Part shown: positions 2,764 through 27,537 of the stretch, piece by piece
How positions within the stretch are numbered: the first letter of the stretch is position 1
How the letters are laid out: every line of letters starts with the position of its first letter
From: Escherichia phage vB_EcoP_PAS59
Direction: 5' to 3' (one strand)
Sequence record: OQ921332.1
Length of the DNA stretch: 64,000 nt
Notes under the pieces: generated by a model
Database searches by the model: none
The model's input: the letters and a program-made list of their open reading frames with translations, nothing else
What the model was told of the DNA's origin: nothing
Position numbers and translations under genes: made by a program

Positions 2764-3390
2764 GTGAGCTTGTTAAGAGATTTTCAACACTATTATTGTG
2801 GAACATGGATTGCTCAGCGATCACCTGATGGTAAAAACCTCCCTCTATATGTGCTTGATGTTCGTCAGCAAGGTAACTTTGATATCGACGACTACTCACA
2901 CGACGCTGAAAGGTCTTTAGTGTTTGAGGCGGAACGCTGGACTAAAAACTCTGAAGGTCAGTTTGAACGTCAGATTGTTAGTAATATCCCAGTGTTTGAT
3001 CACAGCCTCATTCTAGAGTCTCCAGATGTAGGATACCTTCAGCATGGTAATAACATGGTGAGCTGGACCCATATCAACCCTGTTCGTCAGCGAGCTAAAG
3101 GCTTGATGGGGAATAAACTTCGTGGTGCTGCACCTTCTCTCGGACGTTCGATTCCGGGTGATTTGGTGTACAACTTGTTTAATCCAGAGTTTGAAGGGTT
3201 GGTTACTCGTTTCATCTATATCAACCCTGTCGATGGAAAAGTGTATTACAAAGGGGCTTACGTTGGAAACGTGCTTCTTGAAGCTGGCTATGGCGACAAC
3301 GGTCGCCAATCTTTAAACCTTCTGGAGAAGTTCAAGCACATTTCTTCAGACCTGTCATCATATAATGTAGAGTTGGTGGAATCACTATGA
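2764..3390 (+). CDS. hypothetical protein (GTG start)
   Basis: ORF embedded in the amidoligase island; no motif recognised. Confidence 0.4.
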   Translation: MSLLRDFQHYYCGTWIAQRSPDGKNLPLYVLDVRQQGNFDIDDYSHDAERSLVFEAERWTKNSEGQFERQIVSNIPVFDHSLILESPDVGYLQHGNNMVSWTHINPVRQRAKGLMGNKLRGAAPSLGRSIPGDLVYNLFNPEFEGLVTRFIYINPVDGKVYYKGAYVGNVLLEAGYGDNGRQSLNLLEKFKHISSDLSSYNVELVESL

Positions 3391-4487
3391 CAACCGTAGC
3401 ACAAGTTTTTGGATACCGTAACCCTCGCTTATCTGAACCGCATCCAAGCATTGCTTTTCAGTGTGGTGTTGGTATTGAGTTAGAAGTCGAAGGTACTACT
3501 GACATTGACGTTGATATGTGGGTTTGTACTGAAGACGGCTCTCTTCGTGATGGTTGTGAGTTAGTGTGTTCACGACCTTACAACGGTGAAGAATTACTTC
3601 GTGCTATTAACAATCTGAGTGAAGCAGTACAGGATTCTGGAGCCGAGGGGACTTGGCGCTGCTCCACTCACGTTCATATGGATATGCGGGACGCTGATAG
3701 TAATATCCTTAAGAAAGTTATTCTTGGGTGGACGTTCTATGAAAAGATGATGTTCAAATGTTCTGGATATCATCGTTACCGTAGTAACTTCTGCCCAGCT
3801 TTTGCTGTTGTTCAAGCTCAAGTTATGAATGCTTCATCAGCGTTCAACCGAGATGGGGAAGATTTCTTCCGTACTCTTGTTAATAGCTGGGACAAGTATA
3901 CCTCCCTTAACCTGTTGCCTCTATCTCAGTTTGGTTCTGTTGAGTTTCGTATTTCAGAGCCGAAGTGGAAAAAGAGTCAGCTGCTAAATCTGGTCAATCG
4001 CTTCTTGGTTCTCAAGAAACTGGCTGTTGAATATGCAGATTTAGATAATGAAGCTTATGTTGAGAAGTTGAATGAGCTGCGCTTCGCTCCTATGATTCAA
4101 CATCTACCTCTAGACTATACTCCAAGAGATAGCGATCTCACTGAAGGGTATCGTCTTGCCCGTGATATTCTGTTCTGTCGTGAGCAATCTGTAACTTTGG
4201 TTGGTCGTGTTCGTGTGCAACAGACTGGCCCTGATGGTGAAGTCCTTATCAACTTACGTGACATGAATGACTTCTATGGTTTCTTGGGATATGTGCGCGG
4301 TAATGCCAACACTGTCTATGAAGAGATCATGACCTACTACACCCCTCAGATTGAAAGCACTCGAATCGCAACGGTTCGTGAAATTCGTCACATGTTTGCA
4401 TTGATGCGTGAATCAGGTAGCAGTGATAATAACATCACTGATTACATTCCAGACCATCTGGAAATGCAATTAGAACGACTGCTGTAA
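3387..4487 (+). CDS. amidoligase-like protein (glutamine-synthetase-like fold)
   Basis: 'GVGIELEVEG', 'DGSLRDGCELV', 'STHVHMD' resemble the amidoligase/GCS2 superfamily. Confidence 0.5.
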   Translation: MTTVAQVFGYRNPRLSEPHPSIAFQCGVGIELEVEGTTDIDVDMWVCTEDGSLRDGCELVCSRPYNGEELLRAINNLSEAVQDSGAEGTWRCSTHVHMDMRDADSNILKKVILGWTFYEKMMFKCSGYHRYRSNFCPAFAVVQAQVMNASSAFNRDGEDFFRTLVNSWDKYTSLNLLPLSQFGSVEFRISEPKWKKSQLLNLVNRFLVLKKLAVEYADLDNEAYVEKLNELRFAPMIQHLPLDYTPRDSDLTEGYRLARDILFCREQSVTLVGRVRVQQTGPDGEVLINLRDMNDFYGFLGYVRGNANTVYEEIMTYYTPQIESTRIATVREIRHMFALMRESGSSDNNITDYIPDHLEMQLERLL

Positions 4488-4564
4488 CACAATGGGCGCT
4501 CTGATAAAGGGCGCATTTAAAGGTTAATTAGATGAAAGGGTTTACCCTTCAGGTGGATTAGAAA

Positions 4565-6598
4565 ATTTGTGGTATCGTATTAGCTGGCGGCAACATGACC
4601 TCAACAGATTTGGATATTTTCAACCAACTTCTGTATGCTGGTGTTTTCCGTGGACAGCACTCAACTGGTGTGTTTGGTCAGCGTAAAGGTGAAAAGCAAG
4701 TCTTCTCTTATAAAGAAGCTCTTCCTTCTTATGCTTTTATGCTCCAGACAGAATATACAAATATTACCAAAGGGCTTACGAACTACGTAGTTCCTCCTTC
4801 GTGGATTGTTGGTCACAGCCGACATGCCACTCGTGGGGCTGTCAATGCTCGAAATGCTCACCCATTTACTCACGGGGATATTACTCTGGTTCATAATGGA
4901 ACCCTGTTAGATCAAGATCTCCTTCCTGACAGTAAGCGTTTCGAAGTTGATAGTGAAAACATCTGCCACTCAATTAATACCATTGGAGCAGCAGAGACTA
5001 TCCAAAAACTGGATGGTGCATTCACTTTGATTTGGCATGATGCTAAAGACAACACGCTTCACATTATCCGTAATGATGAGCGTCCTTTCCACCTAGCCCG
5101 TTGTGGTTTAGATTGGTTTGGGGCTTCTGAAGAAGCTATGCTTATGTGGATTTTAGAGCGTTCTAAATCCCACAAGAACCGTATCAATGACCACTTCGAA
5201 TGTAAAGTGGGAACTGAGTATATCTTTGATGTGTCTAACAGTCGTATGACTCTGGTTCAAGAGGTGGAGCACAAGCTTCCGGTTTTTACGATAACGAGTC
5301 GCTGGGGCGGCTATTACTCGAACTCCTCTCTATATCAGAACCGACAGACAAACAAATCAAGCAGCAGCACAAGCGACATTTACGGAAACAAAGACGACAA
5401 GCCCGGCGTGACAAGCGGAGACATTCGTCGTCGTAAAGCGATTGAAGACCAGAACAAACTGGCTGCCGATCGTGGTCTTCCTTATCGTCGTGATGGTCGT
5501 GTGGATATTATTCCTCACGAGTTCCATGCTTATAACAACACAGATCGTGGTAAGATGGTTGGTTACATCTACGACGATAAAGCCCAAGAGTATGTCGAAG
5601 GGGATGTTCACAACGTAGCCAAAGATGAATATCTTAAGGCTCTTGAAAACCCAAAGGTAGTATATCGCGGGACGATTGCTTGTATCTCCGAAGTGGACAG
5701 TATGATTCGCCTCGTACTAACTTCAGGGCTGTTTGTTGATGCTACAGATAAGGAGCCTCAAAGCACTACTGCTGATTTTGATGATGATATCCCTTTTGAT
5801 GCAGAGGACTCCTTCATCACTAAAAATGGTGTAGAAGTCACTCGTAAGTTCTGGGAATCTCACTCTCATGGAGATTGTGGTGGCTGTGATAAGCACATTG
5901 ACTGGAAAGATGCTCGTAAGGCTGTGTTTGCTTACCAAGCGTACTGGCATCCAGAATGCTTCGAAGCGTTGTCTAAAACCTCTGAAGAGGAAGAAGACGT
6001 ACCTTTGGGTGTATGTGCTGTCTGTGGTGAAGTCAAGACTGATTTCGAGTTTGACAACGAAATGAGTAAACTTCGTGGTGAAGATATTTGTTATATCTGC
6101 TCCAAAGAAATCAAAGATAAAGTAAAAAATGTTACTCTGTCTGAAGGTTATATTTGGACTAAAGCAGTAGACACAACTAATCCGCGTCGTCCTGAAGTGG
6201 CTGTTCGTGTTGATGAACGTATGCTTAGCCGTATGATTGTAATGGTCAGCTCAGCAAAACGTTCAGGGGATATTACACTCGCAGATGTTCCTAACTCATA
6301 TTTGGAAAAACGTGGTGGCGATACTTATGCCATTTCCGTTTACGGTCCAAAGAATGCCCCAAAGGAGGTACCCGCTGAGAAAGCGGAGACATTTCCAGAA
6401 AAATCAACCTCTCTCCGAAAAACAGTTGTCAGTTATGACGGACAACGAACAGCTGAGTTCACAAAAGCCCTCTGGACTTCAATTGGGTTTTGTGCAGTCT
6501 GTTATAAACAAATTCCGTGGCGTGATGCAGAAACTTGCTCACTAAACAAAGAAAATAGAGTGATCTGTAATTCAGATTACTGTAAAGGTAAACACTAA
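4565..6598 (+). CDS. class-II (Ntn) glutamine amidotransferase domain protein with Cys-rich C-terminal region; predicted AUU start
   Basis: In-frame 'I-CGIVLAGG...RGQHSTGV...HPF...LVHNGTL' begins right after an in-frame TAG; AGGTGG 8 nt upstream of ATT at 4565; C-terminal CxxC clusters. Confidence 0.6.
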   Translation: MCGIVLAGGNMTSTDLDIFNQLLYAGVFRGQHSTGVFGQRKGEKQVFSYKEALPSYAFMLQTEYTNITKGLTNYVVPPSWIVGHSRHATRGAVNARNAHPFTHGDITLVHNGTLLDQDLLPDSKRFEVDSENICHSINTIGAAETIQKLDGAFTLIWHDAKDNTLHIIRNDERPFHLARCGLDWFGASEEAMLMWILERSKSHKNRINDHFECKVGTEYIFDVSNSRMTLVQEVEHKLPVFTITSRWGGYYSNSSLYQNRQTNKSSSSTSDIYGNKDDKPGVTSGDIRRRKAIEDQNKLAADRGLPYRRDGRVDIIPHEFHAYNNTDRGKMVGYIYDDKAQEYVEGDVHNVAKDEYLKALENPKVVYRGTIACISEVDSMIRLVLTSGLFVDATDKEPQSTTADFDDDIPFDAEDSFITKNGVEVTRKFWESHSHGDCGGCDKHIDWKDARKAVFAYQAYWHPECFEALSKTSEEEEDVPLGVCAVCGEVKTDFEFDNEMSKLRGEDICYICSKEIKDKVKNVTLSEGYIWTKAVDTTNPRRPEVAVRVDERMLSRMIVMVSSAKRSGDITLADVPNSYLEKRGGDTYAISVYGPKNAPKEVPAEKAETFPEKSTSLRKTVVSYDGQRTAEFTKALWTSIGFCAVCYKQIPWRDAETCSLNKENRVICNSDYCKGKH

Positions 6599-6609
6599 GA
6601 GGTATAGTT

Positions 6610-6843
6610 ATGGAAGTTCGTAAACTGATGTTGGATAACGTGGTAACTACCCGTCGTATTCCGATGACAAGCACAGGATGTGATAACCTCCGAGCAATTC
6701 AGAAGTGGATGCAAGAAGGTATTGGGAAGCTGGTTGACTCTCCAGTAGAAATCCCTTTTCCAACCGTTATCAATAACGTGTTGGCTGACTATGTTAAAAT
6801 GAAGGGGATTAAAGTTGAGCCTCATGTCAAGCAAGGGAGCTAA
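6610..6843 (+). CDS. hypothetical small protein
   Basis: ORF only. Confidence 0.3.
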   Translation: MEVRKLMLDNVVTTRRIPMTSTGCDNLRAIQKWMQEGIGKLVDSPVEIPFPTVINNVLADYVKMKGIKVEPHVKQGS

Positions 6844-7047: not shown

Positions 7048-8295
7048 ATGACTACTCGTATCCGTGTTCTTCCGTATGGCCCGTCTGATTCTGTTAACGC
7101 TCTGGTATCTGCTATCAGTGATACTATCCGTGATGAACGTATCAACGCTAACATAATGGGTCTTCTTTCAGAGAACAGTCGCTGGCGTTCTCGTGAGGAT
7201 GATGTGGTTGTGAACTACGGGAACCGTCGCTATCCTGAATCCTTCTTTGGTTCTGCAACTGTCCTTAACCGTACCGCAGCCTTACATATGGCAGCGAACA
7301 AACGTCGTGCTTTCAGCGTGATGGACCAAGCAGGTGTTAAAACTGTTGAGTATACAGATGTTCAAGAGATTGCTCAGGAGTGGTCAAACTCTGGCAACAT
7401 TGTGTATGAACGTCATGAACTGACTGGTCACTCTGGTTCGGGTATCGTTGTTGTTGAGCCTCGTGATTCAATTGGTCAAGCTGAACTGTACACCAAAGGT
7501 ATTCAAGGTCCACGTCGTGAATGGCGTGTCCATGTGTTCAAAGGTGTTATCACCTATGTTCAGAAGAAGATTCGTCGTAACGGCTATCGTGAAGACCCTA
7601 ACTATCGTGAAGATGTTCGTAACCATCACACTGGTTGGGTTTACTCAAGTTCCTTCACAGACGCTCCAAATGATGCATCTCTGATCAACGCAGTGAAGGC
7701 CGTTGAATCGATGGGTCTGGATTTTGGTGCAGTTGATATCATTACCAAAGGCCGAGAAGCATGGGTACTGGAAGTTAACACAGCACCGGGCCTGACTGGT
7801 ACAACTCTGGATATCTACCGTCACAACATCCTTGAGTTTGTTAAAGCTCAAAATCCTCTCTATACTCCTCAGTATAAAGTGGGTTACCAGACTCCTGTTG
7901 AAGCTCCAATCGAAGACGGAGATGGAGAGTTGGTAGATGACAGCGAAAGCGCTAATGATGAAAACTTTGCACTGGAAGGTCAGGTAGCACAGCCGGTTGA
8001 GTTGGTAGATGTAGTTCCTGAAGAGATGCAACTGGAAGGTCAGATGAATACTCAAACTATTCGTAATGCACCTACTGGTTACACTTTATCTCGTGGTTAT
8101 TGGATTGCAGATATCCGTCATGTCCATAACAACCTGCAACCGAATGCAATGTCTTCCAATGTCATTTTGTTCTGTGATGGTCGTAACTTCTACCGTAGTG
8201 GCTGGAACGTTCCGGTCAATCCAGTCCAGATTCATAACCCTCGCAAGTTAGAATCTGTCAATGTTGAAGGTAGCGAAGTAGCAGTAACTCTGTAA
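7048..8295 (+). CDS. ATP-grasp family ligase
   Basis: 'EWRVHVFKG...LDFGAVDIITKGREAWVLEVNTAPGL' matches the ATP-grasp C-terminal signature. Confidence 0.65.
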   Translation: MTTRIRVLPYGPSDSVNALVSAISDTIRDERINANIMGLLSENSRWRSREDDVVVNYGNRRYPESFFGSATVLNRTAALHMAANKRRAFSVMDQAGVKTVEYTDVQEIAQEWSNSGNIVYERHELTGHSGSGIVVVEPRDSIGQAELYTKGIQGPRREWRVHVFKGVITYVQKKIRRNGYREDPNYREDVRNHHTGWVYSSSFTDAPNDASLINAVKAVESMGLDFGAVDIITKGREAWVLEVNTAPGLTGTTLDIYRHNILEFVKAQNPLYTPQYKVGYQTPVEAPIEDGDGELVDDSESANDENFALEGQVAQPVELVDVVPEEMQLEGQMNTQTIRNAPTGYTLSRGYWIADIRHVHNNLQPNAMSSNVILFCDGRNFYRSGWNVPVNPVQIHNPRKLESVNVEGSEVAVTL

Positions 8296-8812: not shown

Positions 8813-9244
8813 ATGTCTGATAAAGTACTAGTTGCAACTTACGGAAGCTTGAGAAAAGGTCAACACAACCACGCTATCAATGCTCGTGCAGGTGGTGTGT
8901 CTATTGGTGAAGGGTGGACAGTAAACAACTGTAACCTGTATCAGTATTGCACAGCATACTTCCCAAGTGTATCTTTGGAGCATGACAGCAATGGTAAGCC
9001 TGTTCGTGTAGAAGTCTTTGAAACAACCCAAGCTGGTCTGGAAGGTCCGTATGACGGTCTGGAAGGTCATCGTGGTAATGATAACCCATACACCTTTTAT
9101 AAGCGTACACTGATTCCAGTATTATTGGACAGCGGTGAAACTGTGGAAGCGTGGATTTATCACATCGACGAAGAACAAGATGTTCTGGTTGAATCGGGTG
9201 ACTGGACAGCATATCTGGCAGGTGAGAAGGATGACAGTAACTGA
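8813..9244 (+). CDS. gamma-glutamyl cyclotransferase / AIG2-like protein
   Basis: N-terminal 'VATYGSLRKG' (YGSL motif typical of the GGCT/AIG2 fold), about 140 aa. Confidence 0.5.
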   Translation: MSDKVLVATYGSLRKGQHNHAINARAGGVSIGEGWTVNNCNLYQYCTAYFPSVSLEHDSNGKPVRVEVFETTQAGLEGPYDGLEGHRGNDNPYTFYKRTLIPVLLDSGETVEAWIYHIDEEQDVLVESGDWTAYLAGEKDDSN

Positions 9245-26713: not shown

Positions 26714-27055
26714 ATGGAAAAGCTTCAAAACAATATAGGTTTTTTAATCTTCACAGCTCTGGTTTTCTTTGGTGGTGTCAAGTTTGAGCAATACAGAAGT
26801 GATAGTAATGCTCTTGACCATGAGAAGAAACAGCAAGAGATTGAGGTTGAGAGAGCTAAGGCTGCTGATGAAGTGGCTCAGAAAGTTCTGACTGGTTTAT
26901 CTAACTGGAAGAAGAACACGGAAACTATTTACAAAGAGATGCATTATGAAAAGACTAAGCCAGTTTTTTACAATGTGTGTGCTAGTGATGAGTATGTAGG
27001 ACTTTTCAATGAACGACAGCAACAAGCAGCGGAGGCACTGAAATTAAAGAATTAG
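26714..27055 (+). CDS. i-spanin-like protein (N-terminal TM plus periplasmic coiled coil)
   Basis: 'IGFLIFTALVFFGGV' TM, charged helical remainder; C-terminal 'GLFNERQQQAAEAL' duplicated downstream. Confidence 0.4.
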   Translation: MEKLQNNIGFLIFTALVFFGGVKFEQYRSDSNALDHEKKQQEIEVERAKAADEVAQKVLTGLSNWKKNTETIYKEMHYEKTKPVFYNVCASDEYVGLFNERQQQAAEALKLKN

Positions 27056-27537
27056 TTAAATATCTATCTTACAATGAGGTTTCTGGTCTTCTCTGCTGGA
27101 AACAGTCTGAGGATAAGAGCGCTCAGTGGAATTCAAGATTCGCTGGAAAGGTGGCAGGTTGTAAAGCCACAGATGGCTATACAGTGATTACCTATCAATA
27201 TAAACAGTACAAAGCTCATAGAATTGCTTGGTATATCAAAACTGGAGAGATTCCTGATTTTCAAATAGACCATAAAGATTTAGACAAATCTAATAATTCT
27301 TGGAGCAATCTAAGAAGAGCAACACCTGTCCTTAATAATGCCAACAAAATAGTTCAAAAGAACTCTTTAACTGGAATAAAAGGTGTAGGGTACAGGTCGG
27401 ATATTAACAAATGGAGTGCTCGCATCGGATATCAAAACAAAGTAATTTGGCTTGGTTATCACAGCACTCAAGATGGTGCAGAAAATGCTTACAAAGAAAA
27501 AGCAAAAGAGTTGTTTGGTGATTTTTCTCGCTTCTAG
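27043..27537 (+). CDS. HNH-AP2 homing endonuclease; predicted AUU start
   Basis: Frame open from 27013 with no ATG/GTG/TTG until 27151, yet encodes conserved N-terminus 'IKELVKYLSYNEVSGLLCWK...AHRIAW'; GGAGG 7 nt upstream of ATT 27043. Confidence 0.55.
   Translation: MKELVKYLSYNEVSGLLCWKQSEDKSAQWNSRFAGKVAGCKATDGYTVITYQYKQYKAHRIAWYIKTGEIPDFQIDHKDLDKSNNSWSNLRRATPVLNNANKIVQKNSLTGIKGVGYRSDINKWSARIGYQNKVIWLGYHSTQDGAENAYKEKAKELFGDFSRF

Follow-up and report, generated by a model that had tools for sequence, protein, structure and literature searches.

Strong support for AUU as the initiation codon of a phiEco32-like glutamine amidotransferase gene, and recurrence of AUU and AUC starts in its family

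Escherichia phage vB_EcoP_PAS59 (sequence record OQ921332.1), of which a stretch of 64,000 nucleotides was analyzed (hereafter the window), carries a gene for a glutamine amidotransferase in which no canonical start codon yields the conserved N-terminus of the enzyme, and in which an ATT triplet occupies the position of the AUG of its homologues. Comparative sequence evidence strongly supports initiation of this gene at AUU 4565; with its coding sequence (CDS) corrected to the ATT start the gene occupies 4565..6598 on the + strand and encodes 677 residues, with matches to Pfam GATase_6, GATase_7 and GATase_4 and to PHROG 4736. The window is ~98% identical to the E. coli podophages EK010 and SU7 (Suseptimavirus, Gordonclarkvirinae, phiEco32-like group), and 96 Gordonclarkvirinae records match this region at 75–98% identity. 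A preliminary description of the DNA had proposed the AUU start from the letters alone; its observation and its interpretation are both right, and what it overlooked is an upstream open reading frame (ORF) at 4532-4561, a hairpin at 4536-4549 and the existing annotation of the phiEco32 orthologue.

The start site of the amidotransferase gene

The local sequence is as the preliminary description had read it, apart from one residue. An in-frame TAG (4559..4561; + strand, like every element of the gene and its leader given below) closes the amidotransferase frame upstream, and a Shine-Dalgarno (SD) element, AGGTGG, lies at 4551..4556, 8 nt before the ATT (4565..4567), with a spacing suited to that codon and a predicted anti-SD duplex of -5.9 kcal/mol. 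Nothing except AAA (4562-4564) and ATT stands between the TAG and the TGT codon of the catalytic Cys (4568..4570), so that ATT is indeed the only near-cognate codon that places Cys second. The frame continues GGT ATC GTA TTA GCT GGC GGC AAC to an ATG at 4595..4597 (Met12), which is the first ATG and, in the ORF listing, the first canonical start of the open frame 4562-6598. The peptide previously given for the residues before this ATG leaves out Asn11, the true reading being K-I-C-G-I-V-L-A-G-G-N-M.

By profile comparison the encoded protein is a class-II (N-terminal nucleophile, Ntn) glutamine amidotransferase, as had been deduced from its CGIV N-terminus: GATase_6 reaches 53.7 bits (cut-off 27) and GATase_7 25.1 (cut-off 25), GATase_4 also matches, and positions 2-497 of the PHROG 4736 profile match residues 2-514 (E=1e-183). 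The single sequence found no relative in the PDB; the profile of alignment A1 (11 phage homologues) found the GlmS glutaminase domain (1xff, E=5.7e-10), PurF and AsnB, with N-terminal MCGIV aligned to residue 1 of GlmS and of human GFAT1. Cys2, invariant in alignments A1 and A2, is aligned to Cys1 of GlmS, which bears out the claim that a start at 4595 would drop the nucleophile. Also invariant in A1 are Arg/Gly29-30, R86, T89, H110-N111-G112 and D129-S130, among which R86/T89, H110-N111-G112 and D129, invariant in A2 as well, are aligned to HTRWATHG, VHNG and ETDTE of GlmS; the corresponding glutamine-binding and oxyanion residues of GlmS we take to be Arg73, Thr76, Asn98-Gly99 and Asp123, HNG presumably forming the oxyanion hole. 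The N-terminal Cys nucleophile, R-x-x-T, HNG, D and profile homology are thus common to GlmS, PurF, AsnB and the phage enzyme, whereas the C-terminal two thirds of the latter are phage-specific (PHROG 4736). Its architecture comprises an N-terminal class-II domain (~1-230), a phage-specific middle and a Cys-rich C-terminal region. In class-II amidotransferases the Cys comes first after Met removal, and in the window this is found only if ATT is the start, TGT then encoding the second residue of the translated chain and the first once Met has been removed.

Homologues from at least eight other phage lineages (44–61% identity) have ATG-TGT-GG at the aligned position, including those of Proteus 3H10_20, Vibrio Vp_R1, Cronobacter A24, Salmonella SE131, Aeromonas LAh_8, Pseudoalteromonas RIO-1 and Pseudomonas Bjorn; ATG-TGT homologues span Grimontviridae, Zobellviridae, Bjornvirus and others. 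Since the distant homologues examined all begin ATG-TGT (MCGIV), the window ATT aligns with their ATG, and Ile1 of the window stands in the Met1 column of A1. The alignment of homologues that had been recommended as a check on Cys at position 2 is therefore in agreement with the proposed start.

The ATT is conserved together with its surroundings. The 43 nt from 4530-4572, which include leader, ATT and Cys codon, are 100% identical in 96/96 Gordonclarkvirinae records, none of which shows reversion to ATG although a single T-to-G change would be enough. The combination of ATT, TAG and SD occurs in Aeromonas phage BUCT695 (Grimontviridae) as well as in three genera of Gordonclarkvirinae. With KBNP1711, to which it is 73% identical over 4.7 kb, the window shares as its longest uninterrupted match the 68 nt of 4517..4584 (the next is 37 nt), a block consisting of leader, ATT and first six codons. 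These comparisons mark the block as the translation-initiation region, conserved as a unit, and show extreme purifying selection on the leader; the constraint is greater than an SD and a start codon would by themselves require, and is accounted for by no Rfam family, promoter or terminator. Three ATTAG pentamers lie inside the block, at 4526, 4557 and 4579.

A start at ATG 4595 would produce a non-catalytic scaffold without the nucleophile Cys and is highly unlikely, even though this is the first canonical start and the one chosen by automatic pipelines for SU7, EK010 and ECBP2. At its position Kuravirus has CTG, Nieuwekanaalvirus CTC and BUCT695 AAC; all catalytic residues are conserved and every distant homologue begins MCG. 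Moreover, the ten codons upstream of it evolve as coding sequence: of the variable sites in codons 2-11, 8 fall on third, 2 on first and 2 on second positions, and codons 2-8 show synonymous changes only, so that the stretch upstream of 4595 must be translated in this frame. ATG 4595 is, from its conservation pattern, very probably an internal Met. That the start codon was instead lost by mutation or sequencing error from a decaying gene has a negligible probability, for while ATG to ATT is a single transversion, 96 independent genome records all have this sequence, the ORF keeps its 677 codons uninterrupted and its catalytic residues conserved, no frameshifts or stops were seen in orthologues, and the gene belongs to the core set of phiEco32-like phages, common also to phages 7-11 and GAP52 (PMC8948821 supplement). 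Altogether six agreeing lines of evidence place the start between 4562 and 4567, where ATT is the sole near-cognate codon.

As an annotation the ATT start is not new. The CDS already begins on this ATT in phiEco32 (NC_010324, phi32_83, YP_001671828), whose gene 83 is an orthologue with a leader identical to that of the window and for which the start stands as annotation only, and likewise in SU10 (SU10_085), LAMP (gp83) and Bas92 (Bas92_0065); since the start is present in the phiEco32 annotation, the gene is to be regarded as a further, unvalidated member of a known AUU-initiated class. Elsewhere the annotated CDS starts late, by 11 to 114 codons, with loss of the catalytic Cys: at the Met12 ATG in SU7, EK010 and ECBP2, at a GTG 45 codons in for KBNP1711, 58 codons in for EP335 and 114 codons in for NJ01. 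In two Zobellviridae metagenomic phages too, the CDS is begun too late or the ATT region is unannotated, and in an even sample of 10 records a CDS covers the ATT in two, none is placed there in six, and two are unannotated. Gene callers limited to ATG, GTG and TTG thus truncate the enzyme, deleting its Cys, or skip the region, as in most deposited genomes of the group, and the truncating calls leave dead-looking fragments in protein databases. No paper discussing the AUU codon of the phiEco32-type gene was found in a literature search outside which the phiEco32 genome paper lay.

AUU and AUC starts across the gene family

The invariant Cys serves as an anchor from which the preceding codon can be read. 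Because Cys must be residue 2, the family displays its start codon unambiguously, and AUU or AUC (hereafter AUY) is found in about one lineage in five. Loci collected from IMG/VR, metagenomes, bacterial assemblies and GenBank phages (258 loci, numbered with the prefix L, in 136 clusters at 80% protein identity) have as the codon before Cys ATG in 105 clusters, ATT in 23, ATC in 4, TTG in 7 and GTG in 3. AUY clusters thus outnumber those with GTG plus TTG by 27 to 10, nearly three to one, and earlier subsets gave consistent results. The preliminary description had called AUU initiation rare, which is true in that very few AUU-initiated genes are well documented, and does not extend to this phage gene family, where AUU and AUC recur. 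Two other explanations were rejected, an out-of-frame UUG, CUG or GUG start inside AUUUGUGG and, for L044, L059 and L066, a -1 frameshift from ATGs close by: in both cases AUU alone lies at a suitable distance from the SD, and the enzyme is not encoded in the other frames.

On a neighbor-joining tree built from 102 distinct sequences, AUY starts are scattered over 21 tips and require a Fitch minimum of 15 changes. At least seven AUY cases have close ATG sisters, including L092/L082, L163/L190, L055/L039, L056/L078, the L144-145-158 group/L049, BUCT695/A24 and Gordonclarkvirinae/L024-L028, and even within pairs of at least 80% protein identity the start codon differs (ATG/ATT, ATG/ATC, ATC/ATT, ATT/TTG). 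In ATG/AUY pairs it is the whole leader that differs, which indicates that the leader was swapped as a module; L056 and L287 have the same leader, with ATC vs ATT as the only difference. Leader identity of at least 70% is found in 7% of AUY-AUY pairs and 0.3% of ATG-ATG pairs, the genes being diverged and the pairs non-independent. The BUCT695 leader, within 1500-1600 of L016, is nearly identical to that of Gordonclarkvirinae (two positions differ), whereas the BUCT695 protein is only 58% identical to that of the window and groups with that of the ATG-started Cronobacter phage A24, a pattern that suggests horizontal transfer of the leader together with its ATT. The same pattern is observed for the marine-phage loci L092 and L163, and the leaders of L112, L194 and L236 have GGAGGATTAGAAAATTTGTGG in common.

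Searching IMG/VR with GATTAGAAAATTTGYGG gave 14 matches, of which nine are chance, four are Gordonclarkvirinae contigs previously collected and one, L112, is the sole new homologue. A scan of bacterial assembly contigs with the A1 profile found 9 loci, on contigs of a few hundred bases to ~2 kb or of ~44–50 kb in metagenome-assembled genomes; taken as phage DNA, these leave the amidotransferase family apparently phage-restricted. L197-L200, from the Herbiconiux daphne assembly NZ_JANLCJ01, are four contigs of 560–924 bases with enterobacterial-phage-like amidotransferase fragments having TTG, ATT and GTG starts, and are probably phage DNA contaminating an actinobacterial assembly. The lineage of L035, L133 and L239 begins ATG-TGC-TGT-GGA (M-C-C-G), with two consecutive N-terminal Cys.

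The leader, its upstream frame and known AUU starts

Two hairpins are predicted by folding the intercistronic leader. Hairpin 1 (4496..4514; GCGCUCU-GAUAA-AGGGCGC) lies just past the stop of the upstream amidoligase gene and its stem is kept by compensatory changes, GCGC/GCGC in the window vs GUGCC/GGCAC in Kuravirus and Nieuwekanaalvirus (alignment A3); it has no U-tract and is thus not a canonical terminator. Hairpin 2 (4536..4549; AAGGG-UUUA-CCCUU) ends 1 nt before the SD and has counterparts in BUCT695 (AAGGG-UUAA-CCCUU) and L198 (AAGGGA-UUUA-UCCCUU, with one more base pair). Searched with Rfam at a permissive threshold, 4380-4720 gave sub-threshold chance matches only, and no sigma-70-like promoter or intrinsic terminator was found adjoining the leader. 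A model in which the leader has its own promoter is unsupported, since the phi32_gp36 promoter consensus (tAATGTAtA, at most one mismatch) does not occur near 4500 and is no more frequent across the window than expected by chance. The PMC8948821 supplement tabulates genes and gives no promoter coordinates.

An SD-adjacent hairpin characterizes AUY leaders generally. With the hairpin defined as a stem of at least 5 bp, a loop of 3–8 nt and a 3' arm ending 12–17 nt before the start, abutting the SD, it is present in 23/27 distinct AUY leaders vs 24/115 ATG leaders (Fisher p=6e-10), and the mean minimum free energy of positions -45 to -10 is -5.97 kcal/mol for AUY vs -2.79 for ATG (p=1.4e-8). Longer intergenic spacers were considered as the cause and rejected, the enrichment being present in every stratum of upstream-gene distance (AUY vs ATG: 6/8 vs 13/69, 6/8 vs 4/17 and 11/11 vs 6/12). 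In shuffles the number of AUY leaders with the hairpin had a mean of 7.6 and a maximum of 16, against 22/26 observed. The AUY stems comprise at least 14 unrelated sequences, thus it is the structure and not the sequence that is conserved, while most of the "hairpins" counted in ATG leaders are AT-rich stems that arise by chance. AUY leaders have a slightly stronger SD than ATG leaders (-7.95 vs -6.98 kcal/mol, p=0.03). In its hairpin, SD, TAG-AAA spacer and ATT the window conforms to the AUY leader pattern.

Hairpin 2 lies within the upstream ORF (4532..4561; ATG AAA GGG TTT ACC CTT CAG GTG GAT TAG, encoding MKGFTLQVD), whose 9 codons are in frame with the amidotransferase and whose stop, the TAG at 4559, is 3 nt before the ATT. 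The AUU might be reached mainly by termination and reinitiation, with translation of the short ORF unwinding the hairpin, stopping at UAG 4559 while the SD is still engaged and restarting 3 nt downstream. This geometry is that of E. coli infC, where the UAA of thrS is followed by a 3-nt gap (GGU) and AUU, and where a reporter was expressed at twice the level given by a stand-alone AUU (PMC3592434). Consistent with such coupling, the ATG, length and stop of the ORF are kept in BUCT695 (MKGLTLQAD) despite two substitutions, and the AUY leaders of L033, L055, L066 and L092 have an upstream ORF ending 4–7 nt before the start. However, both BUCT695 substitutions are non-synonymous, the ORF's own SD (AAGG) is weak, L198, L112 and L194 retain the core of hairpin, SD, GGATTAG and ATT with no upstream ATG or ORF, and the AUY leaders of L044, L059, L056 and L073 have no nearby upstream stop. 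The absence of the ORF from related leaders means that AUY starts in general can do without it, and reinitiation as the main route to the AUU in the window is judged unlikely.

The same in-frame ATG, 11 codons upstream, could in principle serve a start at 4532 followed by read-through of UAG 4559 and autocatalytic removal of a 12-residue propeptide, as in Bacillus subtilis PurF, whose propeptide of 11 residues is of similar length. Enzymes of this type, B. subtilis PurF and GltB, have a continuous ORF from an upstream start to the Cys, whereas in the phage gene the frame is interrupted by the TAG, which excludes such a propeptide. For read-through, the window contains no tRNA gene and hence offers no phage amber suppressor, the natural hosts have no general amber suppression, and the TAG is invariant in 96/96 records with no drift to a sense codon. 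Likewise in 18/19 related AUY leaders the interval from the upstream stop to the AUY contains no canonical start in frame, which excludes propeptides there, and in L066 and L198 a TAA stands immediately before the ATT. A read-through propeptide is exceedingly improbable.

For initiation directly at the AUU, a 30S subunit would be positioned by AGGUGG 8 nt upstream of AUU 4565, initiator fMet-tRNA would read AUU as a near-cognate codon, and deformylase and methionine aminopeptidase would free the Cys encoded by TGT 4568 to act as N-terminal nucleophile. In this reading the weak codon is no accident and belongs to a fixed module, made up of the hairpin, an SD that is strong or adjacent, 7–9 nt of A-rich spacer and AUU or AUC, which would keep amidotransferase synthesis low and/or conditional, the condition being the level of initiation factor 3 (IF3) or the nutritional state. 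This conditionality is proposed by analogy with infC and pcnB, because in vitro AUU mRNAs compete poorly and initiation at non-AUG codons is especially affected by nutrient limitation and ppGpp (PMC5499595). We infer that the cassette may set a low or condition-dependent level of a glutamine-hydrolyzing enzyme. In one E. coli reporter study expression from AUU was 6–8 times below that from AUG (PMC3592434).

In the reference list of PMC3592434, infC and pcnB are the E. coli chromosomal examples of AUU. IF3 autoregulates infC through AUU or AUC (PMC5499595), and for pcnB it is the AUU codon that limits translation (Binns and Masters 2002, as cited in PMC3592434). Like the window (UAG-AAA-AUU), infC has an upstream stop 3 nt before its AUU (UAA-GGU-AUU), and in both infC and the phage gene AUU and AUC are interchangeable among orthologues. 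Unlike infC, which is regulated by its own product and preceded by a full gene, thrS, the phage gene encodes a metabolic enzyme and is preceded by a 9-codon ORF, with an SD-adjacent hairpin in the module. With pcnB the phage gene would share AUU-limited translation of an enzyme gene; however, pcnB is a single chromosomal gene, whereas the phage trait was acquired repeatedly with a recognizable leader architecture.

Whether a modular, transferable weak-start cassette (hairpin of 5–7 bp, strong SD, A-rich spacer of 7–9 nt, AUU or AUC and occasionally UUG) has repeatedly replaced AUG leaders, in ~19% of lineages and at least 7–15 independent events, seems to us evenly poised. If so, the cassette would serve specifically to control translation, tying for instance a glutamine-consuming enzyme to IF3 or host nutrition, and AUU or AUC initiation may be much commoner in phage genomes than annotated. 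The family offers a natural, replicated system for the questions of why AUU is used rather than a weak SD and whether near-cognate initiation needs a hairpin. We found no report of recurrent AUU or AUC starts with a hairpin and strong-SD leader in related phage genes.

Several points weigh against the AUU start and its family-wide interpretation. The SD of the window is only moderate at -5.9 kcal/mol, and the upstream in-frame ATG 4532 ORF is, as sequence alone, compatible with a read-through or propeptide route. The whole leader is no more stable than shuffles (z=+0.5 and -0.5), the local hairpin alone standing out. The family-wide counts are phylogenetically non-independent, and the branches of the neighbor-joining tree are long and poorly resolved. 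Finally, the literature search gave no N-terminal sequence, ribosome profiling or reporter data for the gene.

Gene neighbourhood and other features of the window

By Pfam and PHROG matches, the amidotransferase gene is accompanied by a COOH-NH2 ligase type 2 (PF14395; 1903-2754, + strand), an amidoligase immediately upstream (Amidoligase_2; 3387..4487, + strand, stop TAA 4485-4487; PF12224 E=1e-8, PHROG 7469 E=6e-142), DUF7195 (6610-6843), a RimK-like ATP-grasp enzyme (7048-8295) and a GGACT cyclotransferase (GGCT; 8813-9244). Amidoligase_2, COOH-NH2 ligase type 2, class-II glutamine amidotransferase (GAT-II), ATP-grasp and GGCT thus co-occur in the window, the same gene set as in the phiEco32-type cluster of amidoligase, GAT-II, ATP-grasp and GGCT reportedly described by Iyer et al. 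in 2009 in Mol Biosyst, an account that to our knowledge says nothing on the start codon. From this gene context, the synthase partner of the amidotransferase is probably the neighbouring amidoligase or ATP-grasp enzymes. The residues encoded from 5950-6598, in the Cys-rich C-terminal third of the amidotransferase, include three CxxC...CxxC/HxxC-like pairs (CGGCDKH...HPEC, CAVCGEV...CYIC and CAVCYKQ...CNSDYC), none of which has a Pfam match.

A scan of the window for open frames without a canonical start flagged a homing endonuclease (Pfam HNH_3+AP2; 27013-27537, + strand) that follows an Rz-like spanin gene. The endonuclease frame opens at 27013 and has its first canonical start in a GTG at 27151, from the equivalent of which SU7 annotates the gene; an ATT at 27043 is preceded by GGAGG at 7 nt. 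Homologues of the endonuclease align from residues 1-3, and their annotated starts are 4–6 codons upstream of there, while EK010 (L288, 534-1028) has ATC at the aligned position, preceded by GAGGG at 7 nt. From these features ATT 27043 is a probable second AUY start in the same phage.

The COOH-NH2 ligase ORF, with its mechanically listed GTG start at 1903, overlaps the preceding ORF (1005-1955) by 53 nt. The PHROG profile aligns with the ligase only from residue 16, and its true start is thus probably further downstream of GTG 1903.

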